Source of the DNA: Mobula hypostoma
Lineage: Eukaryota
Reading direction: 5' to 3'
Length of the DNA stretch: 64,000 nt
NCBI RefSeq assembly: GCF_963921235.1
Contig: NC_086097.1
Location: 57,848,001 to 57,912,000 of the forward strand
Below, piece after piece: positions 35,269 to 61,529 of this stretch (its first letter is position 1; each line of letters begins with the position of its first letter). A program made the position numbers and the translations under genes. The notes under the pieces were generated by a model. The model was not told the origin of the DNA. It did not search any database and worked only from the letters and a program-made list of their open reading frames with translations.

Positions 35269-38200
35269 TATTTTGGAGTTAAAACTCCAAGGACTTAACT
35301 CTCTCAAATCTTGGTCCTGTAGATGTTTTCTGCCCCAGAAATCAGTTCTAGGTGGCTGCTGATTGATTTTCTTATGATAGACAGTACTATAATTGCTCAA
35401 TGGAATTAGCTCTGACTGACTTTATGTATGTCCTGGATTTGAATGGATCTGCTCTAGACCTGGAACATAATGATAGATCTTGTTGCATGTGCCATTCAGA
35501 GCTTCTGTTGAACTTGGAGCTGGTATAGGAATAGAAAACCTTCTTGATTTGTATGTGGGCTTGTTAGAGAATATTCTGGAGCAATGTGAACATAGCAGAT
35601 ATTAATTCATGCAATAGCCAGTCTTCAGTTTTCATTGTAAATTGGTAGCAGTAAATTGAAGTTAAAAACCCAGGCTGCCCCAGGGACTAGGAGATATGGC
35701 TTTCAAAATGCTGACATGAGATATTTGCATATGCATCAGCCAAACGATAAAACAATAGGGTTGGGTAAATTGGCCTATGTCAAACCAGGTAACATGTGCT
35801 AAGTTATTTGCACCATTGTGACTGAGTTCAAGCTGGCAGACCAGGCTAATGCTGTCAGTTAGTATATCAAACTTGGTCACAGGTATAGGTCCAATCAATA
35901 GCTTGTGTATGCAGAGCATCAGCTCACACAAACATGAATCTTGGGTGTTTGGCTTTCTGTCTTCAGAAGGGTGTAGAATGTTTGTGTCAATTGTTTTTGT
36001 CCCAGCCGGCTGTTTGACCATTCAGAGGTGTATCCCACAGATATGTCATTCAAAGGAAGCATTGTGAACCCAAAATATTGAAGTAAACGATGTCATTGTG
36101 ACTATTGAAATTGTATTGAATCACCTGCTGTTAGCATAACTCAAATTGACACCTTCCTGAATTCTTTAGAATTACCCACTTTAAGCAAAGAACAAAATAG
36201 AGTGATGACTGCTGACATAACTGAAGATGAACTAAAAAAACTGCAATTAGTAGGCTTAAATTAAGCAAGTCACTGGGATCAGATGGATATATGGCACAAT
36301 GGTATAAAGAGTTTAGAAGTGAGTTAATTCCTGTTTTACTCCCCACACTGAACTGGGCTCTAAGAAAGGCACAAATGCCACCCAACTGGAAGGAGGCGAT
36401 AATCTCAGCTATACCGAAAGAAGGCAAGGATAAAATGGAATGTGGGTCATTTAGACCAATATCTGTTCTTAATGTGGATTATAAAACATTTACCTCCAGG
36501 ACCAAATGATTAGAAGAGTGTCTACCCATACTGATACATAATGATCAGACAGGTTTTATACAACAACGCCAAACACAAGACAATATACGAAGGACATTTC
36601 ACATTATGGATCATATAAAAAAAATGATTGAAACAATAGTGATAAACATGGACGCTGAAAAGGCATTTGATTCAGTTAATTGGAATTTTCTATACAGAGT
36701 TTTACATAGATTTGGTCTACATCACACAATTATTAAAACTATACAGGCACTATATGACAATCCTACTGCCAGGATTAAAATCAACGGATAATCATCTGAT
36801 AGTTTTACCCTAGAAAGGGGCACGAGACAGGGTTGTGCATGGTCACCGCTACTCTTCGCATTATATCTGGAACCATTAGCTCAATTTATCAGACAAAATG
36901 AAGATATCAGGGGAATTACTACTAAAGGGACAGAGCATAAATTGGCCTGTTATGCGAATGACATTTTGATCTATCTAGGGCAACCAACATACTCTTTACC
37001 TAAACTGATGCAGTCCTTTGAACAATATGGCCAATTATCAGGATACAAGATCAACATAGATAAAACCCAACTACTTTCATATAACTATAGCCCACCAAGA
37101 GAAATTGAAAGTAGATATCCCTGGGCATGGCAAACAGAGCCTGTCAAATATTTGGGTATCATTATGCCAAAAGATTTGGCAAAATTATCAGAATACAATT
37201 ATCAGCCTATATATAAAAAAATTAAGGAAGATATAACAAGATGGAACCTAATTCCCTTTCTTGGTTTCAGTTCAAGGATTGAAACTATTAAAATGAATAT
37301 ACTGCCCAGACTACTATATCTCTTTCAGACTCTACCAATAGAGATTAACCAAAATCAATTCAATGAATTGAACAAGATGCCATCAAGATATATATGGCAA
37401 GGTAAAAGGCCTAGGGTTCGTCTTAAAACTTTGCAATTAGCCAAGGAAAAGGGGGGATGGGGCCTACCTTTTCTTAGAGATTATTATTTTTCAGCACAGT
37501 TGAGAGCCGTGATATGCTGGTGCAACTCATCATACGGCGCTCAATGGAAAAACATTGAGGAGAGGATACTTTCCATCCCCATACAGGCAATTTTGGCTGA
37601 TAACAACCTACAAGATTACATAAATACTATGGATAACCCATGGGTGAAATGGACTCTTAAAATATGGAAAACTATTATAAAAGAATATAAACTAGAGCGA
37701 GACATTGCAATTCTTAAATGGTCTGCATATGACTCGGATTTTACACCAAATAAAGTTGATGCTAGATTTAAGGACTGAACAGCTAAAGGAATAACAACTA
37801 TTTGCAATATAATGAAAGAAAGAATACTGTTCTGTTTTGAAATGCCCAAGGAGAAACACTTATTAGAAAAACAAGACTTTTACCAGTATTTACAGATGCG
37901 ACAGTAGGTTAATAGGACGGTTAAAAATGTAACCAAGGCAAGTACATGTCTGATAGACCTATTTAGAAAAGCATATAATTCAGACAATGGTAGTAGAATA
38001 ATTTCAATCGTGTATAAGGGTTTGTCAAATCTTAAAACACATTCGACTTCATATATTAAAACAAAATGGGAGAAGGAAGGAGGGATAATAATATCTGAGG
38101 AAGACTGGACAATAATATGGAGGTATCAATGGAAGTGTATCAGTTCACAGAAATGGAGGGAGTTCGGGTGGAAAAACTTGATAAGATATTTTATTACACC

Positions 38201-39125
38201 CTCTCAGAAATCCCGTTATGTTAATAACCTCCCTGTTTGCTGGAGAAATTGTGGAAATCAAAATGAAAACCATTATCATATTTTCTGGGAATGCCCCGTT
38301 ATCAAAGTCTATTGGAGTGGGATACAAGACATCTTTAAATGTGAAATACCCTTAGTGAGTAAGATCATATATTTTGGGTATATACCTCAAGAATGGTTGA
38401 AAAGAGATAAATATTTAATGAATGTAATGCTGGTAAAAAGACCCTTAGCAGGAAATGGTTATCTCAGGAGAGCCCAACTTTAAATGTATGGATGGAAATT
38501 ACAATGGACACTTACAAAATGGGGAAGATAGCAGGATCTGTTAATCATAAGTTGGAATAATTTTATTCATACTTGAAAAAATGGTTTAACTTCATAACAG
38601 CTCATAGGCCTGATTTTATTCTCACAAGTCAATGAACATATTGTAAAAATAAAAGATCACTCTCTACTCTGTACATAGAACATAGAACATAGAACAGAGA
38701 ATAGTACAGCACAGTACAGGCCCTTCAGCCCACAATGTTGTGCCGACCCTCAAACCCTGCCTCCCATATAAGCCCCCACCTTAAATTCCTCCATATACCT
38801 GTCTAGTAGTCTCTTAAACTTCTCTAGTGTATCTGCCTCCACCACTGACTCAGGCAGTGCATTCCACGCACCAACCACTCTCTGAGTAAAAAACCTTCCT
38901 CTAATATCCCCCTTGAACTTCCCACCCCTTACCTTAAAGCCACGTCCTCTTGTATTGAGCAGTGGTACCCTGGGGAAGAGGTGCTGGCTATCCACTCTAT
39001 CTATTCCTCTTATTATCTTGTACACCTCTATCATGTCTCCTCTCATCCTCCTTCTCTCCAAAGAGTAAAGCCCTAGCTCCCTTAATCTCTGATCATAATG
39101 CATACTTTCTAAACCAGGCAGCATC

Positions 39126-41311
39126 CTAGTAAATCTCCTCTGTACCCTTGGAGTTTGTCCTTCCAAAGTGTACCACCTCACACTTCTCCGGGTTGAACTC
39201 CATCTGCCACTTCTCAGCCCACTTCTGCATCCTATCGATGTCTCTCTGCAATCTTTGACAATCCTCTACACTATCTACAACACCACCAACCTTTGTGTTG
39301 TCTGCAAACTTGCCAACCCACCCTTCTACCCCCACATCCAGGTCGTTAATACAAATCAGGAAAAGTAGAGGTCCCAGAACAGATCCTTGTGGGACACCAC
39401 TAGTCACAATTCTCCAATCTGAATGTACTCCCTCCATCACCACCCTCTGCCTTCTGCAGGCAAGCCAATTCTGAATCCACCTGGCCAAACTTCCCTGGAT
39501 CCCATGCCTTCTAACTTTCTGAATAAGCCTACCGTGTGGAACCTTGTCAAATGCCTTACTAAAATCCATATAGATCACATCCACTGCACTACCCTCATCT
39601 ATATGCCTGGTCACCTCCTCAAAGAACTCTATCAGGCTTGTTAGACACGATCTGCCCTTCACAAAGCCATGCTGACTGTCCCTGATCAGATCATGATTCT
39701 CTAAATGTCTATCGATCCTATCTCTAAGAATCTTTTCCAACAGCTTTCCCACCACAGACGTAAGGCTCACTGGTCTATAATTACCTGGACTATCCCTACT
39801 ACCTTTTTTGAACAAGGGGACAACATTTGCCTCCCTCCAATCCTCCGGTACCATTCCCGTGGACAACGAGGACATAAAGATCCTAGCCAGAGGCTCAGCA
39901 ATCTCTTCTCTCGCCTCGTGGAGCAGCCTGGGGAATATTCCGTCAGGCCCCAGGGACTTATCTGTCCTAATGTATTTTAACAACTCCAACACCTCCTCTC
40001 CCTTAATATCAACATGATCCAGAACATCAACCTCACTCATATTGTCCTCACCATCATCAAGTTCCCTCTCATTGGTGAATACCGAAGAGAAGTATTCTTT
40101 GAGGACCTCACTCACTTCCACAGCCTCCTGGCACATCTTCCCACCTTTATCTCGAATCGGTCCTACCTTCACTCCTGTTATCCTTTTTTTCTTCACATAA
40201 TTGAAGAATGCCTTGGGGTTTTCCTTTACCCTACTCGCCAAGGCCTTCTCATGCCCCCTTCTTGCTCTTCTCAGCCCCTTCTTAAGCTCCTTTCTTGCTT
40301 CCCTATATTCCTCAATAGACCCATGCTTCCTAAACCTCATGTATGCTGCCTTCTTCCACCTGACTAGATTCTCCACCTCACTTGTCCCCCATGGTTCCTT
40401 CACTTTCCCATTCTTTATCTTCCTCATCGGGACAAATTTATCCCTTACATCCCGCAAGAGATCTCTAAACATCAACCACATGTCCATAGTACATTTCCCT
40501 GCAAAAACATCATCCCAATTCACACCCGCAAGTTCTAGCCTTATAGCCTCATAATTTGCCTATCCTCAATTAAAAATTTTCCTGTCCTCTCTGATTCTAT
40601 CCTTTTCCATGATAATGCTAAAGGCCAGGGAGCGGTGGTCACTGTCCCCACATGCTCACCCACTGAGAGAGTTGTGACCTGACCCGGTTCATTACCTAGT
40701 ACTAGATCTAGTATGGCATTCCCCCTGGTCGGCCTGTCCACATACTGTGACAGGAATCCATCCTGGACACAGTTAACAAACTCTGCCCCATCTAAACCCT
40801 TGGAACTAATCAGGTGCCAATCAATATTAGGGAAATTAAAGTCACCCATAATAACAACCCTGTTATTTTTGCACCTTTCCAAAATCTGCTTCCTAATCTG
40901 CTCCTCTGCATCTCTGCTGCTACCAGGGGACCTATAGAATACCCCCAATAGAGTAATTGCTCCCTTCCTGTTCCTGACTTCCACCCATATTGACTCAAAA
41001 GAGGATCCTGCTACATTACCCACCCTTTCTGTAGCTGTAATAGTATCCCTGACCAGGAATACCACCCCTCCTCCCCTTTTTCCGCCCTCTCTATCTCTTT
41101 TAAAGCACTGAAATCCAGGAATATTGAGAATCCATTCCTGCCCTGGTGCCAGCCAAGTCTCTGTAATGGCCACTACATCATAATTCCATGTATGTATCCA
41201 AGCTCTCCGTTCATCACCTTTGTTAATGATGCTTCTTGCATTGAGGTACACACATTTCAGCTCTTCTACCTTACTGTCTTTACACCATTTATTCTGCTTC
41301 TCTTTCCTCAA
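39126..41311 (-). pseudogene. CR1 ORF2 (APE-RT) broken by a frameshift and an internal deletion
   Basis: YLNARS, ITETW, GDFNFP; NYRPVSLTS, MDFSKAFDKV, GVPQGSVLGP, FADNTK. Frameshift near 40640 and deletion near 39148. Confidence 0.9.
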
Positions 41312-41394
41312 AGACTATCTGTATGTTAGATCTGGCTTTACTCCATGCATTCCTTTCACTGCTCTATCGCTCTGGGTCCCATTCCCCTCGCAAA

Positions 41395-42384
41395 TTAGTT
41401 TAAACCCTCCCGAACCATGCTAGCAAACCTACCTGCAAGGATATTGCTCCCCCTTGAGTTCAGGTGCAACCCATCCAATCTGTACAGGTTCCACCTTCCC
41501 CAGAAGAGATCCCAATGATCTAAAAATCTCAAACCCTGCTCCCTGCACCAACTCCTCAGCCACGCATTCAACTGCCATCTCCTCCAATTCTTACCATCAC
41601 TGTCACGTAGCACTGGCAGCAATCCTGAGAACGCCACCCTTGAGGTCCTGTTCTTCAGCCTTCTGCCTAGTTCCCGAAACTCACACTTCAGGACCTCATC
41701 CCTCTTCCTGCCTATGTCGTCGGTCCCAACATGTATCACGACTTCTGGTTGCTTTCCCTCTCGTACCAGGATGTCGTGCATCGGGTCAGAGACATCCCGG
41801 ACCCTGGCACCCGGGAGGCAACAAACCATGCAGGTGTCCTTCTCACGTCCACAAAATCTCCTGTCTGCTCCCCTGACTATAGAGTCTCCAATGACGACAG
41901 ATCTCCTCTTCTCTGTCCCACCCTTCTGCACCACAGGGTCGGACTCAGTGCTGGAGGCCCTGCCACCGTGGCTCACACCTGGTCGGTCGTCCCCGTCAAC
42001 AGTATCCAGGACGTTAAACTCATTATTCAGGGGAATGGCTACAGGGGTGCTCTGCACTACCTGTCTGCTCACCTTTGCTTTCCCTCCTCTGACTGTCACC
42101 CAACGACCTGCTTCCGACAGCCTAGGTGTGACTACCTCCCTGTAGCTCTCATCTATGACTGCCTCATTCTCCCTTATGAGTCGAAGGTCATCCAGCTGCT
42201 GCTCCAGATTCCTTACACGGTCTTCCAGATCGCCCTGCTGTATGCACTTCTGACAGATGTGACTCTGCAGGAGAGGGGCGTTCCCCCAAGACTGCCACAT
42301 CTCACATGAGAGACACATCACCATCTCAGGAGACATTGTACAAACTAACTGCGAGCTAGCTTGTCCTCCGCCTCTTCTCGTCAA
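41395..42384 (-). CDS. CR1 ORF1p: zinc finger/leucine zipper plus SGNH esterase domain (open frame)
   Basis: CLSC..CQKC, coiled coil, VIGDSIVR, HVGTDD, DGLHLN. Confidence 0.9.
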   Translation of the reverse strand: MTRRGGGQASSQLVCTMSPEMVMCLSCEMWQSWGNAPLLQSHICQKCIQQGDLEDRVRNLEQQLDDLRLIRENEAVIDESYREVVTPRLSEAGRWVTVRGGKAKVSRQVVQSTPVAIPLNNEFNVLDTVDGDDRPGVSHGGRASSTESDPVVQKGGTEKRRSVVIGDSIVRGADRRFCGREKDTCMVCCLPGARVRDVSDPMHDILVREGKQPEVVIHVGTDDIGRKRDEVLKCEFRELGRRLKNRTSRVAFSGLLPVLRDSDGKNWRRWQLNAWLRSWCREQGLRFLDHWDLFWGRWNLYRLDGLHLNSRGSNILAGRFASMVREGLN

Positions 42385-42797
42385 AGCCTCTCAAGTCAAA
42401 GCCTCAAAGCTCCACTCCTTCACTGGCCCACTCACGCTCATAGATTTCTTCTTCTGATTGTTCTTTCTTTCCTCTCCTTTCTATAAATGTATACCTCAGA
42501 TAAACATTATGTGGAGACTTGTGACAAATATGATTATATGATATATATGTTCAGTATCTGAAATGCATCTTATGGAAATATTTGTTTGATGATGAAATGC
42601 AATAAAAAATAAATTACAAAAAAAAGAATCACCTGCTGTTACCTTTGGATCTTAAGAGATAAAAATGTGATGTACTTTTGGGTTTGTGAGATTGTGAGTT
42701 GAGTGTTTCCATAAGTGCCTGCTTGTTCTGCAGAATAAAGACTCTCTATCACCAGCTTGACAGTGTCTCCGGTGACTTTGGTCACGGTCACAACATA

Positions 42798-42815
42798 TGG
42801 AGGCTCGTTCAGGAT
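42798..42815 (+). promoter_or_regulatory. Primer-binding site complementary to tRNA-Pro
   Basis: TGGAGGCTCGTTCAGGAT matches the canonical tRNA-Pro PBS TGGGGGCTCGTCCGGGAT at 15/18 and lies 2 nt after the LTR CA. Confidence 0.85.
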
Positions 42816-42959
42816 ACGTTCGTGAGCCTCTGTGTGGCCAGTCTAAGGCAGTGAGTATTTTTAAGAGTAGCGCCCCATGCTTTCATCTGTTCAGGTCAAT
42901 GACTATGAGATCAAGAAGTATCAAAGAACACCACAAGAGCTGAACTGGTAGATATAGAA

Positions 42960-42960
<1 letters not shown>

Positions 42961-42996
<36 letters not shown>
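42961..42996. repeat. (TG)n microsatellite in the ERV leader
   Basis: Perfect dinucleotide run. Confidence 0.95.
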
Positions 42997-42997
<1 letters not shown>

Positions 42998-43339
42998 TTG
43001 TGTAAGGGAACAGCTATCAGAAAGTTTTGGGTAGGTTGATGAGACAGGGCCACCAGATGCAAAAGCTGGTTATTGACCATCCCGGATGGCAGATTGTTCG
43101 TGTATACTCATTTGGGATACTGCATAGTAGTATACAGTACTTGTTTGTGAGTACAGAGTTTTATATGGAAAGGAATACAACAGGCATCATGAGCCCAGCA
43201 GCACGTATGTGGATGATTGCAGAGTACATATTCTGTGGTTTTAAGTGTGCACTGATCGCGTTTATCCATCCCTTCCACTTTCCTTAGTATGGGAATTAGT
43301 GTAGGGGGATATAAGGAACAGTTTATACCCAGGTGTATC

Positions 43340-44527
43340 TATTGGGATGGCGCCTATTGAGGTGAGACAATGGCAGGTTGAGAATACTGATAACCCAAAC
43401 CAGCCATTGACCCTGATTACCACCATTCATAAGCCCCTCACCCCTGTGGGGAGAAGCAGAACCTTTTGTTAGAGCTGCTCTCACTTAAGGTTGCTTGTAG
43501 GAATTCAGAGTTCTGGTGTAAGATCTGTGAAGAAATGATTGAAATGCACCAGACGCACCCAAAAGATATAGATGTGTCAGTGAAGGTGAAATGCCCGAGA
43601 AATATGTGGGACAGTATGGCCCAGGGAGTGTGGGATGGTGCATGGATGCTAGTAATGAGGAGAGATATCAATGCTTTAAGGGAGAAGTAAGGTAGCGACT
43701 AGAGGGAGGTGAGAGTAACTGGGGAATCATAATATCAGTGGTTCAGAGAGCTGATGAGCATGCCATGGATTATGCACAGCATAAATGTCGAGCATATGAG
43801 GAGCATTCAGAGCTGAACAATCCGGGGAGGAATAATCCTATCTTCCTGAAAATTCTGAAGGAAGGCCTGAGCTCAGACCACCAGGAAGTTTGAGATTTGG
43901 GGATAACAGTGGGATCAACCTACCCAGCGTTCTTATCATGGGCTGGTGAGATGGATCAGAGGAGGGGGAAGAGAAGAGGCTGAAGCTGCTGTGAAGACAC
44001 AGAGAACTTGCTTTGCGCGCTAGCAACCAGGACACCTAGCAAGGAACTGCTGGAATGGACGTAGAAAGGAGGTGATATGTTACAGCTGTGACCTATCGGG
44101 ACATAGTTGGAGACAGTGTCCTAAAAAGGAAGGAAGGTGTGAGAATCACTCAACAAAACAGGCAGAAATGACAGTAGTGCCCTCCCTGTTGGACTAGACT
44201 GCTGACCAGATCATAGAGCTCGTGAGGCCAGCATCCACGTCAGACAAATGGCTGGCGGCTGCCTCCATTGCCAGTACTAGTCACCCTCAGATGTACATAA
44301 AAGGTTAATTAGCAGGCCATGTAAGTGACACAGTGTCAATAACTGATCTACCCTTGCCCGTGACTGGAGAGATAATTAACATTACGGTGCAGGGGGTGAA
44401 CCAATGAGGACAGAGACAAGTGAGCCACAGATACCTGAGATTGAGGGACTGCAGCTTCCTGTAGATTTCTGGGTGTGGCCAAACAATGATAGTACTTCCT
44501 GGGGCTGGACACACTCAGTAAAACAGG
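43340..44527 (+). pseudogene. gag: ERV-like gag and protease remnants
   Basis: MAPIEVRQW..TIHKPLTP (capsid-start-like), CCHC knuckle CYSCDLSGHSWRQC at 44078-44119, protease-like PQMYIKG..SITDLPLPVTGE..FWVWPNN..GLDTL; stops and frameshifts throughout. Confidence 0.7.
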
Positions 44528-45157
44528 TTAGATTAGATTCTGAGGACACGCAGTCCTCTTTTATTGTCATTTAGTAATGCATGCATTAAGAAATGATACA
44601 ATATTCCTCCGGTGTGATATCACAGAAACACAGGACAGACCAAGACTGAAAAACTAACGAAGACCACATAGTTATAACATATAGTTACAACAGTGCAACA
44701 ATACCATAACTTGATGAAGAACAGGCCATGGGCACAGCAAAAAAGTTCAAAGTCTCTCGAAAGTCCCACATTTCATGCAGATGGGAGAAGGAAGAAAAAC
44801 TCTCCCTGCCATGCCCGACCACAGTCCAACTCTGAGTTGTCCGAAAACTTCGAGCCTCCGACCAGCCCTCCGACACCGAGTACCGAGCACCATCTCTGCC
44901 AAACGCTTCGACCCCAGCCTTGGTCGCCAGCAGTAGGCAAAGCTGGGGATTTTGGGGCCTTCCCTCTGGAGATTCTCGATTGCACAGTAACAGCGGCAGC
45001 GAACCGAGCATTTCAGCAGTTTCTCCAGATGTTCCTCTGTGCTTCTCACATCTGTCTCCATCAAATCAGAATTGTGCATGGCATCCTACTTACAAACACG
45101 ATATCATTTCACCGGAGAGCTGCGTGCGCTGCGTTGCGCCGCCATCTTCTCCTCCCG
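44528..45157 (-). mobile_element. Non-coding retroposon (copy 2), inserted in the ERV protease
   Basis: Same 5' GGGAGGAGAAGATGGCG and the same 3' hairpin GAGGACtgcgtGTCCTC-(aatct)n as 4612-5292. Confidence 0.88.
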
Positions 45158-45901
45158 CTCATAGACTCATGAAAGGGAGAAATAACATGGCTAAATTAGG
45201 GATAGTGAACGTGTGTGACCCACAGATCAGACAACGTGGCCCACAGAAAGACAGAAACCACAAGCAGGGACAGGACATGGGACATGTGTGTGAGTTGTGT
45301 CAGGACGTCCCGAGGGCGGAGGCCACAGAGAAGAACTGTCAGAAGTAGTGCAGTTGCCTGCAGATGAGGCAGCAATTAAATTAAAGGGACACCTGAAAGG
45401 GGAGAGTAAGGGCAGAAAGGGAATGTGTGTGAAAATCACAGGGCAAAGAGAGCAAAGGAAAACCATATGACAACAGAAATTGCAAGTATGGAGGGAGAAA
45501 GCTACTAGAAGCAACTTAGTAAGATCAAAGGAGATGTGAAGTGCCATTGTAACCAGGTTATCACAGCAGAACTGCAGTAACATTTGCTGATCAGAAAGAG
45601 CCAGAGGGAGAAAAAAATCCTCTCATAGCTGGGTGACCAAGTCGTGGTAAGGCAGCTGCCTGAAAAGGCAGGGTTGGCTCCCAGGTGGATAGGACCACAG
45701 ATGGTGCTTTTGATAAACGTTGTGCTGTACAAGGACATATCAATTAAATAAAAGCACACATGCAGGGGTGAAGTTAACTGCTATATTCACTTTGCAGAGA
45801 GAGAAAGAGAACAACAGATCAATGTACATGGCTAAGTTATCAGTCAATAATTAGTGGTAAGGTGAGTCATTGCACCAAAAGAAAAAGATCTGTACATTAC
45901 A

Positions 45902-47430
45902 CTTGCGCCTCACTCCTGGATGAGCTAAAGGTTTTTTATGCTTGATTTCAGGTTGATAGGACTGAACTCCCGAGGAGAGCCGCCAACAAGATCTGCACCA
46001 CGGTCATCTCCGAGGCTGAGCTATATAGCACATTCCAACTTGTCAACAGACACAAAGCAGCGGGGTCGGACGGCATTCCAGGGCGCGTTCCTAAAGTGTA
46101 TGCAGAACAGCTGACCAGTGTGTTTACGGACATTTTTAATCTCTCCCTCTCCTAGTGCGTAGTTCCCTCCTGTTTCAAATCATCCATCATTGTCCCTGTA
46201 CCTAAGAAAACCAAGGTAGCATGCCTGGATAATTGACGGTCTGTCGCACTCGGCTCAATTATAAGCAAATGCTTTGAGGGGCTGGTGAAAGACTACATCT
46301 GAAGCATGCTACCACGCACATTGGACCCCCTACAATTCGCCAACTGACAGAACCAGTCTACTGATGACACCATAGCCACAGCACTACACACTGTCCTCAC
46401 TCACCTGGAGAAGAGGGTTGCATATGTTAGATTGCTGTTCCTGGACAACAGTTTAGCATTCAAAACCATAATTCCCTCCAGACTTGACAGGAAGCTCAGA
46501 GATCTCAGCCTGCATCCTAGACTTCCTATCGGATCGCCGACAGGTGGTAAGGATGGGCTCCCTCATCTCTGCCCCTCTGACCCTCAACACAGGTGCCCCC
46601 CAGTGTTGTGTTCTGAGTCCCTTTCTCTACTCCCTTTACACCCACGACTGCTGCCACACACAGCTCCAATCTGCTGATCAAATTTGCAGATGACACGACT
46701 TTGATTGGCTTTATTTCTAGTGGTGATGAGACAGCCTACAGAGGAGAGGTTGACACTCTGACACAGTGGTGCCAGAATAACAACCTTTCCCTCAATGTCC
46801 AAAAAACAAACGAGCTGATTGTGGATTACAGAGGAACGGAGACAGACTCGCCCCGATCAACATCAATGGGTCTGCAGTTGAGAGGGTGAGTAGTTTCATG
46901 TTCCTCGGTATATACATCACCAAAGATCTCACCTGGGCTGTACAGACTGGCTTTGAGGCAAAAAAAGCACGATAGTATCTCTTCCACTTCAAGCGACTGA
47001 AGAAGTTTGGAATGGCCCCCCAAATCATCAAGACCTTCTATAAGGGCACCATTGAGAGCATCTTGACTCTCTGTATCACTGCCTGATTTAGGAAGTGCAT
47101 CAATCTTGATCACTGGGCACTGCAGAGAGTGATACGGACAGCCCAGAGCATCTCTGGATGTGAACTTACATCCACTGATGACATTTATAGCAGCAGGTGC
47201 AGAAAGAAGGCCAGTCACCCCAACCATAAACTGTTTCAGCTGCTCCCGTCTAGCAAATGCTACTGCAGCATTGAAGCCAGGACCAACAGGCTATGGGGCA
47301 GCTTCTTTCTACAAGCCATTAGACACTAAATTGACATGTCTGTGCATTGCAATGGAGTCATAACGCAAAGATTTTTACTCCCTCGTTGTGGAATGTGTAT
47401 AAGATTTAAATAAATTCTAAATTCTAAATT
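45902..47430 (+). mobile_element. Rex1/Babar LINE inserted at the Gypsy PPT/LTR junction
   Basis: KAAGSDGIPG, TGAPQCCVLSPFLYSLYTHDC, KFADDTT; (attctaa)n tail. Confidence 0.9.
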
Positions 47431-49436
47431 CCTCCCCTTTTGATTAATGTAACATAAAGCTATATATGTAACAAAACATTCAATTTCCCTTTAACAAACC
47501 ATATTCATATAAGCATGCTTTCACAATAACTGTCCATAACTAACTTCACTATACTAAAGATTCACTTATGACAATGTCGGGTCATTCCTTCTTTCTCTTT
47601 GTATTTCAGAATTTGTAACTAGCAACTGGTCCACCAATTCTGTGTGAAATACCTCTGCTGGGACACGGAATGAAGATTTCTCTTCTTCAGATGTTAACAA
47701 TGGAAGATATGACAAAGCATCAGCATTGCTGTGTTGTTTGGTACCCTTGAACTCTATGTCAGAAGGGGTGGGCTCTTGGGAAAATTGCTCAACGTTGTAA
47801 CTGGGTAGCAGGCATCACTGTGGTTCCCTTCCTGGGTTTGAAAATGGACACAAAGGGCTGGTGGTCTATCACTAGAGGAAACGTTTGTCCATAGAGATAG
47901 TGGCGGGACTTCTTCAGTGCCCATACAAGACTAAGGGCCTTTTGGGCGACCTATGTGTTGCTGCATTCTGCACTCTCCAGTGATCTTGAGGCAAACAAAT
48001 TGGACATTCAGATCCGTCTTTCATAGTGTGTGACAAAATGTCTCCAATGCCGTAAAGGGACACATCACACACCAGTCTGATGGGCACAGATGGGTCATAA
48101 TCGGTGAGTAGTTCATCTGATGTTATTAGTCTTTGTATTTCCTTGAATGCTCTTTCACATCTTTCTGACCATTCCCACTTCGCTCCTGTCCATAACAGTG
48201 TGTTCAATGAGTGCAGCACTGTAGAAATGTTCGGGAGAAACTGGATGTGCTTTATGGAATCTCGGTGTTGCTGCTTCATCCAGTTCAATTCTGGCCTTTA
48301 TGCCTTTGAGTTTAGCAATACCCTTCTCAAACACCTTCTCATTAGCATTAAGCTGCTGTGACAGTCTTTGGTTACTGCTACCACTTGGGCTGCAGTTGCC
48401 TGTTGATAATATATTGCGAACTTTGATTGTGTGCCAGTCCAGTTGGATTTTTCTCAACCATTCATATTCGGAAAGTGCTGGTCCTCCACTTTTCAAAACA
48501 TAAAGCTCTAACTGCTGTGTTTTGCCTCCGTATGTCACCTTTACTTTCAGTTTGCCTTTGGGAGACGTTTTTTCACTTGTGTAGCTCTTTAGCATCACTG
48601 AGGTCTTCTCTAATAGTAGCTTAGAAAACAGTATATTGTAGTCAGTCTCTGAAGTTACAGGTAAAACTGACCCTGTATCCAGCTCCATTTTTAGTTTCAC
48701 AACAGACACATTTATTGTAATCCATATGAATTTGCGATCTCCTTCAGTAATAGTATGCAGTTCCAGGCATGACATCTCACTTTTCTTGAACCCTGTGTTG
48801 TCTGATTCAGTCACTTTGAGTATTTGTTTAGTTTTATGTTTGAACTTTTTCATTCTGGTTTTTCTCTTTGATTGTGCTTTTTGTCTGACTTGCACACTCC
48901 CTTTATGTAACCTTGTCAGTGACACTTTCTGCAAACATTTTCTTTGAAACAGGAGTCATTTGCATCATGGGAGGATTTGCCACATCATAACATTTTTGGC
49001 TTTTTGCATAATTCAAGGTCATTGTGTGTATTTCACATTCTAAATTCTTTTTCTGTAGTTCTGTTGCATCATGTGCTGCAGTCTCTAGCAATAATGCAAT
49101 AATCAATACCCGTTCTAAGGTTAGGTCTCTTTCTGACAGTAGCCTCTTTTGAGTGCTTTGACTATGCATGTCACATACAAGCCTGTCCCTTAATGCTTAG
49201 AAGGTCCATTTCTAAAGTCACAGTACTGGGAAAATCTGTGCAGTTCTGCAATGTATTCAGAAATGCTTTCATTCTTTGACTGGTTCCTTTTGTGAATCTA
49301 AATCTCTCAGTTATTACTAGTGGTTTAGGGCTCAACTGATTTTGTAAAATTGCAACATTTTCATCGAACGTCTTGCTTGCTGATTTTTCATGAGTTATTA
49401 AGTTGTGGAAAAGCACCCATTAAGCTAAGAAGTGTG

Positions 49437-51337
49437 CTCCTGCCCCACCGAACTCGTTTCTGCATACCTCGACACTGTTTTATCAGCCCTTGTTCAATCC
49501 CTTCCGACCTATGTTCGTGACACTTCTCACGCTCTTAAACTTTTCGATGATTTTAAGTTCCCTGGCACCCACCGCTTTATTTTCACCATGGATGTCCAGT
49601 CCTTATATACTTCCATCCCCCATCAGGAAGGTCTCAAAGCTCTATGCTTCTTTTTGGATTCCAGACCTAATCAGTTCCCCTCTACCACCACTCTGCTCCG
49701 TCTAGCGGAATTAGTCCTTACTCTTAATAATTTCTCCTTTTACTCCTCCCATTTCCTCCAAACTAAAGGTGTAGCTATGGGCACCCGTATGGGTCCTAGC
49801 TATGCCTGCCTTTTTGTTGGGTTTGTGGAACAATCTATGTTCCGTGCCTATTCTGGTATCTGTCCTCCACTTTTCCTTCACAACATCGACGACTGCATTG
49901 GCCCTGCTTCCTGCACGCATGCAGAACTCGTTGACTTTATTAACTTTGCCTCCAACTTTCACCCTGCCCTCAAGTTTACCTGGTCCATTTCCGACACCTC
50001 CCTCCCCTTTCTAGATCTTTCTGTCTCTGTCTCTGGAGACAGCTTATCCACTGATGTCTACTATAAGCCTACTGACTCTCACAGCTATCTGGACTATTCC
50101 TCTTCTCACCCTGTCTCTTGCAAAAACGCCATCCCCTTCTCGCAATTCCTCCGTCTCCGCCGCATCTGCTCTCAGGATGAGGCTTTTCATTCTAGGACGA
50201 GGGAGATGTCTTCATTTTTTAAAGAAAGGGGCTTCCCTTCCTCCACTATCAATTCTGCTCTTAAACGCATCTCCCCCATTTCACGTACATCTGCTCTCAC
50301 TCCATCCTCCCACCACCCCACTAGGAATAGGGTTCCCCTGGTCCTCACCTACCACCCCACCAGCCTCCGGGTCCAACATATTATTCTCCGTAACTTCCGC
50401 CACCTCCAACAGGATCCCACCACTAAGCATATCTTTCCCTCCCCCCCCTCTCTGCATTCCGCAGGGATCGCTCCCTACACAACTCCCTTGTCCATTCGTC
50501 CCCCCCATCCCTCCCCACTGATCTCCCTCCTGGCACTTATCCGTGTAAGCGGAACAAGTGCTACACATGCCCTTACATTTCCTCCCTTACCACCATTCAG
50601 GGCCCCAAACAGTCCTTCCAGGTGAGGCAACACTTCACCTGTGAGTCGACTGGGGTGATATACTGCGTCCGGTGCTCCCGATGTGGCCTTTTATATATTG
50701 GTGAGACCCGACGCAGACTGGGAGACCGCTTTGCTGAACATCTACGCTCTGTCCGCCAGAGAAAGCAGGATCTCCCAGTGGCCACACATTTTAATTCCAC
50801 ATCCCATTCCCATTCTGACATGTCTATCCACGGCCTCCTCTACTGTAAAGATGAAGCCACACTCAGGTTGGAGGAACAACACCTTATATTCCGTCTGGGT
50901 AGCCTCCAACCTGATGGCATGAACATTGACTTCTCTAACTTCCGCTAGGCCCCACCTCCCCCTCGTACCCCATCTGTTACTCATTTTTATGCACACATTC
51001 TTTCTCTCACTCTCCTTTTTCTCCCTCTGTCCCTCTGAATATACCTCTTGCCCATCCTCTGGGTCACCCCCCCACCCTGTCTTTCTTCCCGGACCTCCTG
51101 TCCCATGATCCTCTCATATCCCTTTTGCCAATCACCTGTCCAGCTCTTGGCTCCATCCCTCCCCCTCCTGTCTTCTCCTATCATTTTGCATCTCCCCCTC
51201 CCCCTCCAGCTTTCAAATCCCTTACTCACTCTTCCTTCAGTTAGTCCTGACGAAGGGTCTCGGCCTGAAACGTCGACTGCGCCTCTTCCTATAGATGCTG
51301 CTTGGCCTGCTGCGTTCACCAGCAACTTTGATGTGTG
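49437..51337 (+). mobile_element. Young Penelope-like element (RT plus GIY-YIG), 5'-truncated, 15-bp TSD
   Basis: MDVQSLYT, KGVAMGTRMGPSYA, NIDD, VIYCVRCSRCGLLYIGETRRRLGDRFAEH; one frameshift at the poly-C near 50441; TSD aagctaagaagtgtg at 49422-49436 and 51338-51352. Confidence 0.96.
51242..51279 (+). ncRNA. Minimal type I hammerhead ribozyme in the PLE pLTR
   Basis: Stem I UAGUC / CUGACGA / A-GGGU-cucg-GCCU / GAAA-CG-UC^ / GACUG; palindromic ACGU in place of stem III; predicted cleavage after 51274. Confidence 0.8.
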
Positions 51338-51376
51338 AAGCTAAGAAGTGTGGAGGTTTTCTTTTCCTCATTCATA

Positions 51377-54300
51377 AGGCCATAAGATATAGGAGCAGAA
51401 TTAGGCCATGTGGCTCATCGAGTCTGCTCTGTCATTTCATAATGGCCGATCTAATTTTCCTCTCAGCTCCAATCTCCTGCCTTTCCCCATATCCCTTCAT
51501 GCCCTGATCAATCAAGAATCTATTAATTTCTGCCTTAAATATACATAAAGACTTGGCCTCCACAGCTGCCTATGGCAAAGAATTCCACAGATTCACCATT
51601 CTCTGGCTAAAGATATTCCTTCTCATCTCTGTTCTAAAAGGACAACCCTTTGTTCTGAGGCTGTGTCCTCTGGTCATAGACTCTAACACCAGAGAAAATA
51701 CCCTCTCCATATCCACTCTATCAAGCCCATTCACCATTCCATAGGTTTCAATGAGGTCTTCCCTCATTCTTCTGAATCCTAGTGAGTAGAGGCCATCAAT
51801 CACTTTTCATATGACAAGCCATTCAATCCTGGAATAATTTTTGTGAACCTCTTTTGAACCCTATCCAATTTCAGCAAATCCTTTCTAAGATAAGGGGCCC
51901 AAGCCAACTCACAATGCTCCAAGTGAGACCTCATCAACTCACATTACTCCGAGACTTCATCAAAATTTCATAAAATTTCAACATTACATCCTTGTTTTTC
52001 TATTTTATACTTGAAATGAATGCAAAAATTGCATTTGCCTTCCTCACCACAGACTCAACTTGCAAATTAACCTTTAGGGATTCCTGCACAAGCACACCCA
52101 ATCATTTGCACCACAGTTCTTTGTATTTTCTTTCCACTTAGAAAATAGTCAACCCTTTCATTTCTTCTACAAAAGTACATGACCACACACTTCCCAACAC
52201 AGTATTCCATATGCCATTTCTTTGCCCATTCTCCAAATCTGTCTAAGTCCTTTGGTACCCTCTCTACTTCCTCAAAACTACCTGCCCCTCCACCTATCTT
52301 CATATTGTCTGCAAACTTTGCAACAAAGCCATCAATTCTATCATCCAAATCATTCACATATAACATAAAAAGAATCGGTCCCCACACAGACCCCTGTGGA
52401 ACACCACTAGCCAGTAAAAACTCCATTTATTTCCACTCTTTGCCCCCTGCCAAACAGCCACTGCTTTATCCATGCTAGAAGCTTTCCTGTAATACTTGTA
52501 AAGCAGCCTCATGTGTAGCACCCTGACAACATCAACCAATTCTCCATTGTCTATCCTGCTTGTTATTCAAAGAATTTCAACAGAATTGTCAGAGAAGATT
52601 TGTCAGAGGAAACCATGCTGACTATGCCCTATTTTATTATGTGCCTCCAAGTACCCTGAGACCTCATCCTTAATAATTGACTCCAACATCTTCCCAACCA
52701 CTGAGGTCAGACCAACTGGCCTATAATTTCCTTTCTTCGGCCTCTCTCTCTTCTTGAAGAGTGGAGTGACATCTGCAATTTTCCAGTCTTCTGGAACCAT
52801 TCCAGTATCTAGTGATTCTTGAACGATCATTATTAATGCCTCTGCGATCTCTTCAGCCACCTCACGTTCAGAAGTCTGGGATGTACACTATCTGGTCCAA
52901 GTGACTTATCTACTTTCAGACCTTTCAGTATCCCAAGAACCTTCTCTCTAATTAAGGTAACCACTCACTTTATGACAATTGACACTTGGAACTTCCAGCA
53001 TGGTGATCCAGCAGTCTGATATCCACCCTTGCCTCTCTTTGACATTTTATGTATCTGAAGAAACGTTTGGTATTTTCTTTACTATTATTGGCTAGCTTAT
53101 ATTGAAGTCTGCCATGTCTGTTGTAACATTGCTCTTTTGGCATACTTTTTCTATCTCCCATTGTAATTTGTAGGCTAGATCCTTACTACTGTTTGGGGAT
53201 TTGTATGCAACTACCATCAGGGTCTTTTTACCCAAGCAGCTCCTTAGCTCTATCCACAATGATTCAACACCTTCTGACGCTATGTTATCTCTTTCTAATA
53301 ATTTGATTTCATTTTTTACCAACAGAGCAACACTACTCCCTCTGAATTCCTGCCTCTTTTGATACAATGTGCATCCTTGGACATTAAGCTCCCAGCTATA
53401 ATCATTCAGCTATGATTTAGTGATGCCTACAACATCATACCTGCCAATCTGGAATTGCAGTGCAGTACCTTATTCCGTATACTGTGCACATTCAAATACA
53501 ACACCTTTACTCCTGTTTTTACCCTTTTCAGTTTTGTCCACCTTTTATATTGCAACTCATCCTGTTGACTGCAATTTTGCTACAGCCTCTATCAACAGCT
53601 TCTCCTCACTACATTTTGCCACTGTTTGTAAACCAGCTACCTCATCTTCAGCACTGTCATCTGCCTTTCCTACAATATTTCTTGTATTGAAATTCAGGCA
53701 GTTCAGGACACTAGTCGCACCATGTTCAACCTTTTGATTCCTGTCTTTGACTGAGGTCTTACCAACAGCTCCCTCCACAACCTCTCCAGTAACTGTTCTG
53801 GCACTCTGGTTCCCACCCCCCCCCCCCACAACTCTAGTGTAAGGGGTTTCTTCTTTTATGTTACTGCGTAGGCTAATCAAAATGGCTTCTTTGTTATGTT
53901 AACTGTTGAGAAATTTCTCTCACTAGCAGCTTGTTTGGGTTATAGAGTGAGTTGGACTCAGTTGCTAACCAATTGGGATAGACGTTATTTTTACTTGTGT
54001 GTCTGTAAGCTATTGTGGTGCGTGGATGTTTGGGCAGAAGGTGTGATGGGGAGAGAGAGAGTGGACGTGATGCTGTGAGCGGCCGATGGGACAGACCCCG
54101 AGCTAGAGTCCGAGGTCCAGGGTCTTTGGCGAGGAGAGGAGATGAAGACAGACTCATGTGGAGCGTCTGGTCGACCACCATGGTTGGCCCCAGGCGGTGG
54201 GTCGAGGTGGTCAGAGGGGATCGAAGGGTGAAAAGGGGATCGTTACTAGAGCTCCAACTGTTGTGCACGAAGAGGTTGAACTTTGATAAGTTTGGCGCCT

Positions 54301-54860
54301 TTTACTTTCCTTTTATTTTTTATCTCTATTAATTATATAGTTCCAGTAATATCTATAAATTGTAATCATTTAATCGTATATGGTGTAGTGTCTTGTTATT
54401 TGGCAGGGTGGGGTACAATCACATAGCATCCACACAAACTTGATTACCCAATTTGGCGGGGCTGAAGGCTGCTTCTCCTAGACGACAGCGAGCTGAGGGG
54501 GAGGCTTACCAGAGGGTACACTAGTTAAACCCACCATGCAGAATTAACAAACCTTCCCACCAGTATATTAGTAATTTTCCAGTTCAGGTGCAAACTGTCC
54601 CTTCTGTAAAGGTACCACCTTCCCTGGAAGAGAGCCCCATAATCCAAACATCTTATGCCCTCCCTCCTACACCAACTCATAGCCATGTATTAAACTGTAT
54701 AATCTTTCTAGTTCTGGTCTCACTAGCACATGGCACGGGTAGCAATCCTGAGGTCACAGTCTGGAGGTCCTGCCCTTTAACTTAGCACCTAACTCCCTGC
54801 ACTCCCTATTCAGAACCTCGTCACTTGTCCTACCCATGTCATTGCTACCTACATGGACCA
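51377..54860 (-). mobile_element. CR1 LINE inserted in the Gypsy gag
   Basis: ORF1 HVGSNDMG, APE LWIELRSCLGKK, RT NYRPVGLTSVVGK and GVPQGSVWGP; tail at 51377. The Gypsy gag resumes at 54861. Confidence 0.9.
53838..54520. mobile_element. Solo LTR (683 bp) with 4-bp TSD
   Basis: TGTA..TACA termini; CTAG at 53834-53837 and 54521-54524; inserted at the CR1 ORF1/ORF2 junction. Confidence 0.9.
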
Positions 54861-55775
54861 TGTCACTCACGTTACAATGAAGTTCAACCCTCTCGATATA
54901 CAATTCCCAGTCCTCAGTAGCACAGTCAAATTTGTCAGCTTTCCCAACTAAGGCCATCATCACATTATTTTCACTTTAACTTTGCTAGTTGCTCATCTCA
55001 CGCATCCTTTTGTTAGCGTCTGTGACGGCCTTCTCCGTACTGATTCACTCTTTCCTCTCTCTGTCTCTCTCCCTTCCTCTGAGTTCTGTTGTCCCGTACG
55101 AACATTCAGGTTTGTACTTGTTGCCAATCTGATGTGTCTGTACAACTACATATCTGTAAGGGGGTTTCAATTAAATAAAAGCACATATGTGGAGGTGAGA
55201 TTCACTTTGTAGCCAGAGAAAGAACACAGATCAATGTTATTAGTCAGTAAGTACTACTAAGGGGAGTCATTGTGCTAAAAGAAAAAGATCTATACATTAC
55301 AATAAATCACACCTGTCTCTGTGTGCAGATCTGGCGAGGCAGCCAGTGGAAACAATGGACTCAGGTTAAACCGTATGACTCACCTTCTTGTCACCCTCGC
55401 AGACAGAATAAGGGATCAAGTCCACACAGTAACAATGTCATTGCAGGGAATTTAAATGAAGAACACCACCCTGTAACTTTACATATATCCGGGCCTGGTG
55501 GAAACAGACTTGTGGATGAAAGAGTGGGAATGCAAATGCAGAAGACAGAGTGCGTGTCTGCAAGCCATGAACGGTGTGTTAAAGTATAATGGTTCCTGTA
55601 CTTTGTAATAGAGGCTGGTTCTCTGGGGGAGATGGTTGCCATGACATGGAATGTGAACTATTGCCTGTGATCCTGAACCTAGTTACCTTGCTGGTGCCCC
55701 TGCACACAGAGCAATTACTGAGCTTTAGCTACCAGATATTAAAAGGGTGAAGATGAGGATATGTAAACCACAATG

Positions 55776-56422
55776 CACCGGCAGGGAAGGAGGCATGGTC
55801 ATGCATGAACAGGTCATGCTCTCTTCTCGCTACTGCCTTCACGAAGAAAGTACAGGAGCCTTAGGACTCACACCACCAGGTTCAGGAACAGTTACTATCC
55901 TACAACAAATGGGCTCTTGAACCTAGTGGCATAACTTCACGCAATTTCACTTGCCCCATTGTTGAAATGTTCCTGCAACCTATGGACTCTGTTTCAAGGA
56001 CGCTTCGTCTCAGTTTCCTCCTCCTGTAGTCAATAATCAGCTCTTTGGTTTAGCTGACATTGAGTGAGAGGCTGTTGCCATGGCAACACGCTGCTAGATT
56101 TTCCGTCTCGCTCCTATGTGGTGTTGTCAGCAAACTTGAGTATGTCTTTGGAGTGGTGCTTAGCCACACAGTCATGAGTGTAAAGTGTAAAGCAAGCAAA
56201 CAGGGCACTAAGCACACAGCCTTGTGGTGCACCTGTGCTGATGGAAATTATAGAGAAGATATTATTTCTAATTTGAACTGACTGGGGTTTGTAAGTGAGG
56301 AAATTGAGGATCCAGCTGCACAAAGGGGTATTCAGAACAAGGTCTTGAAGCTTAATGATTAGTTTTGAGGAGATAATTGTATTGAATGCCAAGATGTAGT
56401 CTATAAAGAGCGTTCTGATGTT
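55776..56422. mobile_element. Rex1/Babar fragments in opposite orientations
   Basis: Plus 55800-56010 reads GHALFSLLPS..RFRNSYYP; minus 56015-56420 reads [23 protein letters not shown]. Confidence 0.8.
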
Positions 56423-56423
56423 A

Positions 56424-57515
56424 TGGAGTCATAGAAATATACAGCACAGAAGCAGCCGCTTTGGTCCAACTAGTCCAGGCCGAACTATTTAAACTGCCTA
56501 CTCCCATCGACCCGAACCATAGTCCTCAACACCCCTACCATCCATGTGCCTATCCAAACTTCTCTCAAACGTTGAAATTGCAATTGCATGCGCCACTTGT
56601 GCTGGCAGCTCATTCCACACTCTGATGACCCTCTGAGTGAAGAAGTTTCCCTTCTTGTTCCCCTTAAACATTTCACCTTTCACACTTCACCCATGAACTC
56701 TAGTTGTAGTCTCAACAAAACTCAGTGGAAAAAGCCTGCTTGCATTTACCCTATCTATACCCCTCATAAATTTGTATACTTCTATTAAATCTCACCTTAG
56801 TCATCTGCATTCCAAGGAATAAAGACCTAATCTATTCAACTGTTCCTTAAAACTCAGGTCCTCAACTCCTGGCAACACACTTGTAAAATTCCTCTGTACT
56901 CTTTCAACCATATTTACTTCTTTCCTGTATGTAGGTGATCAAACTGCACCCGATACTCGAAGTTAGGCCTCACTAACACCTTATACAACTTCAACATAAC
57001 ATCTCATCTCCTGTACTCAATACTGTGATTTATGAAGGCCATTTTCCAAAAGCTTTCTTAATGACCCTATCTACCCGTGCAACTTCAATGATTTATGGAG
57101 CTGTACTCCCAAATCCCTTTGTTCTACTGCACTCCTCAGTGCCCTACCATTCATTGTGTAAGACCTGCCCTGGTTGGTCCTGCTGATGGGCAACACCTCA
57201 TACTTGTCTGCATTAAATTCCATCTGCCTTTTTTCAGCTGGCCCACAACCCACTGCAAGCTCTGATAGTCTTTCTCGCTGTAACACTAGCCCCCCCCCCC
57301 CAAATTAGTGTCACCTACAAATTTGCTGAGCCAGTTAACCCCCAGTCTTGATGTGACATGCAAATTTGCTGGTCCAGTTAACCACGTTATCATCCAGGTC
57401 AGTGTTTTAGTTGACAAGCAGCACTGGAACCAGCACCAATCCCTGCGGCCCTCCACTAGTCACAGGCCTCCAGGCACGGAGGTAACCATCAACTACCACT
57501 CTTTGGCTTCTCCCA
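56424..57515 (-). mobile_element. CR1 LINE 3' fragment
   Basis: VTSGGPQG, QMEFNADK, FFTQRVIRVWNELP; tail near 56424. Confidence 0.88.
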
Positions 57516-58842: not shown

Positions 58843-58947
58843 TATTTTTGTGCCTCCAATTCTCCGTTGGTATTCCTATGTATAACTCTATGTGGGATCC
58901 TGCTGTTCCTTCGCACCTAGGTTAGGTCAATGCCAGTGCTTACCGTC

Positions 58948-59480
58948 CTAAGCATGGCCTGGATGGTGGGGATCCTTCATGACAGATGCTGCTTTCCTAC
59001 AACAATGCTCTGTGTAGATGTGTTCAATGGTATGGAGGGCTTTAATCATCGTGGACTGGGCTGTATCCACTACTTTTTGTAGGATTTTCTCTTTAAGGGC
59101 ATTGGTGTTTCCATGCCATGCTGTGATGCATCCAGTTAATATACTCTCCACCACACATCTACAGAAGTTTGTCAAAGTTTCAATGTCATGTTGAGTCTTC
59201 GCAAACTTCTAAGGAAATAGAGGAGTAGAGGAAGGTGGAATTTTCTTTAGCTGGGGGTTAGTGAATCTGTGGAATTCATTGCCATGGACGGCTGTGGAGG
59301 CCAAGTCATTGAGTATATTTAAAGTGGAGATTCATAGGTTCTTGATTAGTCGGAGTGTCAAAGGTTACAGGGTGAATGGTGAATGGTGTTGAGAGGGATA
59401 ACAAGTCAGTCATGATGGAATGGTAGAGCAGACCTGATGGGCCGAATGGCCTATTTCTGTTCCCTATGTCTTATGGCCAT
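58948..59480. mobile_element. Rex1/Babar fragment (minus, 58948-59222) and CR1 3' end (plus, 59235-59480)
   Basis: ESILTGCITAWHG..KDPHHPGHA; 'gggccgaatggcctatttctgttccctatgtcttatgg'. Confidence 0.8.
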
Positions 59481-61430: not shown

Positions 61431-61529
61431 CTAGTATTACATTTGAATGTGAAAGATTAACTCACTCAATCTTCCAGCATCGGGTAATTCAATCTTTGTC
61501 AAAAATGCATTTCTGTATTTCTTTTGAAT

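Follow-up and report, generated by a model that had tools for sequence, protein, structure and literature searches.

The question raised by this locus is whether a gag-bearing provirus without reverse transcriptase (RT) lost that enzyme at one site or belongs to a family that spread without it, and from which retroviral lineage it came. A preliminary description of the window (the whole 64-kb stretch of DNA that was analysed) had proposed a hidden class I, gamma/epsilon-like endogenous retrovirus (ERV) that was non-autonomous. The element is here assigned to the ERVs related to snakehead retrovirus (SnRV) on the affinity of its Gag, protease (PR), and integrase (IN) C-terminal domain (CTD), since the window is RT-less. 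It is, on balance, best regarded as an ancient dead SnRV-related provirus, probably from a non-autonomous subfamily that would have obtained RT and integrase from intact relatives. The locus itself is a dead copy and nothing suggests a host function.

The pieces and their order were read directly from the sequence, and the LTR is followed by the primer binding site (PBS) and then gag-pro-pol with IN last, as in a retroviral ERV (Table 1). A single LTR was found, the 5' LTR, and the approximately 230-bp LTR described previously was recovered as LTR-like pieces of 73 and 154 nt on either side of a LINE with a 16-nt duplication. This LINE is presumably L1-type and contains a minus-strand LINE, which we take to be CR1-type, nested at ~38680-42440. 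The PBS is identical at 15 of 18 nt to the tRNA-Pro PBS motif, which also features in MLV and tRNA papers, and is its sole match in the 64-kb window, in agreement with the tRNA-Pro assignment made before; no tRNA gene was found in the window and Rfam gave no useful match near the PBS. Compared with the N-terminal parts of the P0007, L001, and P0008 Gags, the leader gave no significant match, the distance from the PBS to the first capsid (CA) helix is 653 nt compared to 1538 nt in L001, and the matrix region seems to have been lost. At the other end, the tail had no match to env-bearing polyproteins, and no local alignment above shuffles was detected in 55600-64000, consistent with the 3' LTR that had already been reported missing. 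The previously described 9.6-kb Gypsy insertion does contain a Gypsy element, but this is internally deleted and much of the span consists of LINE and Penelope-like sequence nested within it. Between the LTRs of this Gypsy element, 21 of 156 aligned sites (13.5%) are different; an absolute date from this difference was rejected, since the rate that PMC4422223 assumes for sharks led to an implausible age. The locus is very old, and younger elements have invaded it heavily.

Table 1. Features of the provirus remnant and of the elements inserted into it (window positions).
Feature	Position	Strand	Evidence and remarks
5' LTR, piece 1	36061..36133	+	Sequence; start approximate; end is the LINE's 16-nt target duplication
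5'-truncated LINE insert ending in an A-run	36134..42641	+	Target site duplication (TSD) 36118-33 / 42626-41 (16 nt), RVT_1 matches, ORFs; second duplication copy included
5' LTR, piece 2, with AATAAA and terminal CA	42642..42795	+	Sequence; covered by other copies in 4/4 runs
PBS, tRNA-Pro type, 3 mismatches	42798..42815	+	Motif scan: 1 match in window, 0.01 expected by chance
Leader with GT microsatellite	42816..43346	+	No matrix-like sequence detected
gag capsid region with stops and frame shifts	43347..43980	+	z 17-57 vs P0001, P0007, P0008; z <=4.5 vs 12 class I polyproteins
Nucleocapsid, two knuckle motifs (first degenerate)	43995..44130	+	Pfam zf-CCHC 44075-44125, E 4.6e-4; P0001 alignment
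Protease, decayed, active-site motif degenerate	44290..44524	+	45% identity to P0160 14-53; 48% to P0157 19-43
Very-high-copy repeat insert	44525..45157	-	75% identity to reversed window 4612-5292; bypassed by contigs in 4/4 runs
Putative protease C-end, linker, first RT residues	45158..45333	+	Best local match P0160 112-129 at 45280-45333, colinear, p=0.18
RNase H C-terminal remnant, past deletion 1 (~560 aa, P0160 scale)	45318..45454	+	P0160 692-732, p 0.005; 730-743, p 0.10
Integrase core-to-CTD linker and CTD first half, past deletion 2 (~290 aa)	45458..45717	+	Profile match to P0160 1035-1116; MLVIN_C E 0.05
Gypsy-type LTR element insert	45718..55301	-	5-nt TSD 45713-17 / 55302-06; RT_RNaseH_2, RVT_1, GIY-YIG matches
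CTD second half, starting with second duplication copy	55302..55376	+	P0160 1120-1141, 45% identity, p 0.005
Short 3' tail, purine-rich PPT-like run ~55742-55759	55377..55759	+	Sequence; env would not fit
Possible 3' LTR stub, truncated by LINE-like DNA	55760..55772	+	Likeness to 5' LTR start by eye only; not significant

The top Gag matches were P0001 (Mobula; 67% identity to the window gag over 83 aa), P0007 (Heterodontus, Gag plus RT), and P0008 (Caretta). The gag and protease remnants noted earlier were borne out, with two knuckles instead of one, the first being degenerate as judged by eye and from the P0001 alignment. No Pfam match to Gag_p30 was obtained in the window or in these three relatives; the Atlas model of P0008 resembles Gag_p30 at TM 0.5-0.6, and the AlphaFold model of P0001 had a mean pLDDT of 39. 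Further homologs were scarce: a search with the CA-C stretch confirmed none of 23 candidates, a search with alignment A1 retrieved P0007 alone among 7999, and Gag-based scans of viral and metagenome contigs gave no match.

Five window pieces are colinear with the full Pol P0160 (residues 14-53, 112-129, the latter weak, 692-743, 1035-1116, and 1120-1141). The stretch 45158-45631, formerly termed non-RT filler, is pol sequence comprising the RNase H C-end, the IN linker, and a weak RT start, and pol accordingly carries, on the P0160 alignment, two deletions of ~1.7 and ~0.9 kb. The RNase H C-end was supported at p<=0.01 against five of nine Pols and at p<=0.02 against eight, and cannot separate the lineages, with top scores of 66 for class I and 60 for TIDY Pols; RNase H had been listed as lost, which holds for all of it except this C-terminal remnant. 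The IN linker plus CTD profile scored 14.7 bits compared to a shuffle maximum of 3.3. The claim that the IN CTD rejoins across the Gypsy insertion was upheld, as its halves match consecutive P0160 residues (1089-1116, then 1120-1141) on either side of the 5-nt duplication. No RT or IN core of the SnRV-like lineage was present in 36060-55770, confirming the RT-less state of the locus, and PDB sequence searches with the two "filler" stretches returned chance matches only.

The best matches of the window CA, PR, and CTD all came from the SnRV-like clade, which corresponds to clade Huo of Xu et al. (2018; PMC6001957), and the relatives with matching Gag, protease, and CTD were shark, ray, and turtle elements. 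For the protease C-half (88 vs. 43) and both CTD halves (87 vs. 61; 68 vs. 44), P0160 ranked first in a set of 19 TIDY-motif and 32 class I Pols. In RT trees, which were unrooted (no outgroup) and in which the element was represented by its closest RT-bearing relatives, P0007, P0160, P0157, and P0086 (the Mustelus cluster included) grouped with P0108 (97/92 and 100/99), whose RT is the same as the one listed for SnRV in the PMC7947760 supplement. The RTs of the relatives formed a branch apart from class I (100/100), and an AU test on this group, chosen after the first tree had been seen, rejected its placement with class I (p-AU 0.012). The relatives share only ~37% identity with SnRV over RT plus tether and are therefore placed, by sequence divergence, in a separate subfamily.

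The class I origin proposed initially could draw on the tRNA-Pro-type PBS, the MLVIN_C-like CTD, Gag_p30 clusters among the Atlas look-alikes of the related turtle Gag, and MLV RT as the closest match of P0007 and P0160 among solved structures. The last point means little, as no SnRV structure was among those PDB matches, and SnRV itself has an MLVIN_C domain (E 9.6e-6), so that the CTD motif, put forward as a gamma/epsilon mark, is no class I marker. In addition, the CA segments were unmatched in 12 class I polyproteins (z <=4.5, compared to 17-57 with the relatives) and the RTs of the relatives have the SnRV motif set rather than the QDLR/HDLR of KoRV, Xen-1, and WDSV. With the AU test also against it, a class I derivation is very unlikely and already largely refuted. 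More improbable still is an origin outside the retroviruses proper, from a Ty3/Gypsy element or a lokiretrovirus. Two knuckles and a GPY/F-like motif occur in Gypsy elements as well, the TIDY motif is common to Loki RTs, and non-chordate RT clusters ranked first in the Atlas feature search for the P0160 RT. Against this, the closest Pols carry a tether plus a second, retroviral RNase H (full in P0160), part of which the window retains; they scored 384 bits against MLV/XMRV RT and only 214 against Ty3, in keeping with the retroviral nature claimed before. Loki RTs read CPFG where the relatives read LPQG, as seen when P0160 and P0007 were set by eye beside published loki sequences, there being no loki row in the trees. 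ERV3/ERV4 identity was ruled out, since the element has both a zinc finger and a GPY/F-like motif and these groups are scored in Table 1 of Chong et al. (2014; PMC4299795) as having neither; the same table gives a 4-bp target duplication for class I ERVs, whereas the provirus has lost its 3' end and with it any readable duplication.

In all four runs, 79-105 different contigs per run differed from the window at the CA site and 31-41 at the PR site, and gag is multicopy in four related organisms. Contigs of three other organisms cross both deletion junctions; the long ones have single-copy depth, are 94-98% alike, and in one case continue into the locus-specific Gypsy LTR, and are therefore read as orthologues. 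Among the 32 of ~91,000 pieces and 15 of ~1,030 joints listed, no clear paralogue over both junctions was seen. The family is multicopy, but among the contigs listed both junctions were seen only in orthologous ones, and the non-autonomous lineage of the preliminary description, RT-less throughout the family, is likely, not established. The RNase H stub and the linker had far less summed contig depth than gag or the CTD; contig depth cannot rank gene parts, the window copy may lie under the 80% bar there, and this was counted for neither reading. Pol-based scans of viral contigs found nothing, and the metagenome scan gave 3 distant loci from 222 candidates.

Alternatively, and less probably, an ordinary full-length SnRV-like provirus may have lost RT, IN core, and other parts after its insertion, through deletions confined to this site that predate the split of the four organisms sampled. 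The site is very old and heavily invaded, the nested Gypsy is also internally deleted, a large deletion of another kind occurs in a further copy (43751 joined to 45654 in 4/4 runs), and the shark relatives P0007 and P0155 retain RT; the contigs listed held no paralogue with both junctions. However, it would need three or four independent losses, all sparing the cis signals. In X14, one contig of multi-copy depth connects the RNase H remnant with the linker and the CTD across unread letters, and the one named ray relative, P0001, is annotated as Gag-PR only, which is weak evidence as its model ends at a break. At least three separate losses at a single locus, with cis signals spared and no env, would be more readily explained by a streamlined template than by random decay. 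Under the preferred reading of a helper-dependent subfamily, deletions, probably from template jumps in reverse transcription, would have taken out RT together with the bulk of RNase H, both the N-terminal and the core domain of integrase, and likely also the matrix region. The deletion would have preceded insertion, with the cis-required signals (LTR, primer site, and purine tract) and capsid-nucleocapsid-protease retained. The RNA would then have been packaged and reverse-transcribed by a helper within germ-line cells, so that the element spread in deleted form. An improbable extension is that a large, ray-wide SnRV-like family became purely intracellular parasites of their autonomous kin, in which CA-NC-PR and a short, CTD-ending Pol stub were selected; matrix, env, RT, and integrase core would have been shed and the stub could either enter helper particles during their assembly or bias integration. 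The CTD is heavily covered by other copies, an observation compatible with a selected Pol stub.

There is precedent both for ERV families that retain Gag without RT and for SnRV-like ERVs in sharks. The zebrafish BHIKHARI elements Bik-1/Bik-2 and chicken ENS-1 are multicopy families with gag but neither pol nor env, for which a helper was inferred (bioRxiv 10.1101/2024.03.25.586437), and the ray element shares the multicopy state, the retained gag, and helper-driven movement as inferred here. Bik is described there as lokiretrovirus-related and young, with intact Gag and no pol components, an account in which no CCHC knuckle features; in contrast, the ray element is an ancient, dead member of the SnRV-like group in which protease and pol stubs persist, and the loss of RT across its family is only likely. 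Elephant shark CmiERV lineage I is SnRV-like (Han, 2015; PMC4422223), and the host of this element is likewise likely a cartilaginous fish. A zinc finger in Gag and a GPY/F-like motif are noted for some SnRV-related ERVs (Chong et al., 2014; PMC4299795), the RT-bearing relatives of the element group with SnRV Pol, and an MLV-like IN CTD occurs in both, whereas the element is without RT core, IN core, env, and likely matrix. An intact gag-pol relative in the same RT clade was found in metagenome contigs L001/L002 (P0090 cluster), with the order LTR, PBS, gag, stop, and then pol in the same frame. Its CA similarity is weak (z 3.3), and it differs in its complete pol, long Gag N-terminus, other PBS, and one knuckle. 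The family was not described in the literature searched, a scope outside Repbase and Dfam, and may already exist as a deposited repeat family.

If the shared deletion is true, the SnRV-like clade, of which little has been described from cartilaginous fish, would gain a non-autonomous Gag-protease family. The CmiERVs were defined through Pol plus Env (Han, 2015; PMC4422223), and such deleted elements would therefore be missed. An abundant ray family would thus have been overlooked by RT-based or Pol-plus-Env ERV screens, and a tRNA-Pro PBS with an MLV-like integrase CTD is not diagnostic of class I.

Three insertions broke up the retroviral element of window 36060-55770 (table below), one of which, a LINE, left 5' LTR pieces of 73 nt and 154 nt on either side. 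An 18-nt PBS-like site started two bases past the LTR terminal CA and agreed at 15 of 18 positions with the PBS motif of tRNA-Pro; it was the sole match of this type within the window, where chance predicted 0.01. Gag and protease had decayed through stops and frame shifts. Of the Pfam domains, the second zinc knuckle was recognized at E 4.6e-4, whereas the MLVIN_C match was weak, at E 0.05. Neither an RT core nor an integrase core of the element's lineage was found in 36060-55770, and the search for a 3' LTR gave nothing above shuffle level. A purine run is followed by about a dozen bases whose likeness to the LTR start was judged by eye only; the run lies ~370 nt from the integrase C-terminal domain (CTD), leaving no room for env.

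The stretch at 45158-45631, set aside as non-RT filler in the preliminary description, is pol, given its in-order matches to the RNase H C-end and the integrase linker plus CTD of the full-length Pol relative P0160. The RNase H match reached p<=0.01 against five of nine Pols and p<=0.02 against eight, and the linker plus CTD profile scored 14.7 bits compared to 3.3 for the top of 300 shuffles. As all pieces run in P0160 order, the alignments indicate that the pol carries two deletions, which measured on P0160 amount to ~560 and ~290 residues. The Gag N-terminus also seems lost, since nothing in the element matched a matrix and the first CA helix lies 653 nt from the PBS, a distance that is 1538 nt in L001, an intact relative.

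Features of the window, with the P0160 residues matched by the pol pieces
Feature	Window position	Strand	Details
LINE in 5' LTR	36118-33 / 42626-41		16-nt target duplication
Protease	44386-44505		P0160 14-53
633-nt repeat	44525-45157		in end of protease
RT start	45280-45333		P0160 112-129; weak, p 0.18
RNase H C-end	45318-45422		P0160 692-732; p 0.005
Integrase linker + CTD	45458-45712		P0160 1035-1116
Gypsy-type element	45718-55301	-	splits CTD; 5-nt duplication
Remaining CTD	55311-55376		P0160 1120-1141
Purine run	~55742-55759		
Second Gypsy copy	~22198-25770	-	LTRs 87% alike
Integrase-core + RT remnants	8857-9358; 14068-14670	-	23-29% identity to P0160
Penelope-like element	~49420-51340	+	RT + GIY-YIG

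With the gag-pro frame as query, phmmer returned 71 matches, most of them generic zinc-knuckle ones, headed by P0001 of Mobula hypostoma (E 7e-24). Its 67% identity to the window over 83 CA residues makes a ray the likely host. The capsid was also matched by P0007 (Heterodontus francisci; Gag, RT and tether) and P0008 (Caretta caretta), and a search with the P0007 RT gave 70 Pol proteins whose clusters supplied P0160 and a Mustelus member. After three of 73 proteins had been left out for a short or absent RT, a first RT tree of the remaining 70 placed P0007, P0160 and the Mustelus cluster outside the 44 class I-type rows and with P0108 (support 97/92), a Pol whose RT reads identical to the snakehead retrovirus (SnRV) row in a supplementary RT alignment (PMC7947760). 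The same group received 100/99 in a 28-row RT plus tether tree, where its union with class I was rejected (p-AU 0.012), a test on the RT of relatives using a group named after the first tree was seen, no outgroup and a simpler model. Of all the Pols compared (19 with the TIDY motif, 32 of class I), P0160 gave the highest scores for the window protease C-half and both CTD halves; the RNase H stub did not discriminate between the two sets. The CA segments gave z 17-57 against P0001, P0007 and P0008 (P0001 without the N-terminal segment) compared to at most 4.5 against 12 class I polyproteins. The class I reading drawn from the CTD motif was not borne out, as SnRV itself carries MLVIN_C and the motif is thus not class I-specific. 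Class I membership is not supported, and placement in an SnRV-like clade is supported indirectly, through sequence relatives.

Two other identities are also not supported: Loki RTs are unlike at the LPQG motif in the sequences compared, and ERV3/ERV4 have neither zinc fingers nor a GPY/F-like motif, features that some SnRV-related ERVs do possess (PMC4299795). Among the relatives, L001 (1-6572) and L002 represent an intact gag-stop-pol SnRV-like element with LTR and PBS in metagenome contigs, the contig stopping shortly past pol. P0088 from Pimephales promelas, which clusters with other cyprinids, is modelled as an SnRV-like Pol of 1006 aa and passes directly from the integrase zinc finger to linker plus CTD without a core; several cluster members are similarly long (984 aa). 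The core may truly be deleted, or the gene model may be at fault.

Four sequencing runs, from four organisms, supplied contigs that were aligned to window 42627-45900 at 80% likeness, and the best were listed. At least 105, 89, 79 and 95 different contigs per run differed from the window at a CA site, and at least 41, 40, 31 and 38 at a protease site, which makes the family multicopy in each of the four organisms. Contigs without the 44525-45157 insert occurred in all four runs; the protease therefore continues into the former filler in other copies. Among the contigs listed, three from other organisms crossed both deletion junctions (records 32, 16 and 24, differing at 10/555, 24/593 and 24/401 letters, respectively). 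These are read as orthologues because they stand at single-copy depth and record 16 extends into the locus-specific Gypsy LTR, which would mean that the deletions arose before these organisms diverged. In the contigs listed, both junctions were not crossed by any clear paralogue.

The stub, linker and CTD also lie together on one contig of run X14 (depth 156), as read without the letters between them, and another locus of the family has a different, larger deletion joining 43751 to 45654, capsid to integrase CTD, in all four runs. Decay after insertion may have produced the losses, an account we consider less likely because three or four separate losses have left every cis signal intact. On this ground we lean towards the element being a member of a non-autonomous subfamily.

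The nested Gypsy, whose LTRs differ at 21 of 156 sites, is itself internally deleted, with gag and protease and an RT start joined to a thumb/RNase H-like part, and has no RT core or recognisable integrase. The second copy of its family is more complete, with RT and integrase remnants. The integrase-core and RT remnants probably belong to another split LTR element. Several close relatives of the Penelope-like element lie in other parts of the window, at up to 97% likeness.

SnRV-like ERVs have been described before, from elephant shark (PMC4422223) and more widely among vertebrates (PMC6001957, PMC4977317, PMC12193657). Families of ERVs with gag and no pol are also on record, namely zebrafish Bik-1/2 and, as a nonautonomous variant, ENS-1 of chicken (bioRxiv 2024.03.25.586437). 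The ray family was not found in the literature searched; repeat databases or paper supplements could contain it. Beyond structure, relatives, nested insertions, copy abundance and age relative to the four organisms, which were observed, we infer that the element works like a non-autonomous ERV. An internally deleted template encoding CA-NC-PR would have retained LTR, PBS and purine tract, and would have been reverse transcribed and integrated within germ-line cells by the enzymes of an autonomous SnRV-like partner; after insertion, the window copy decayed and took in further elements.
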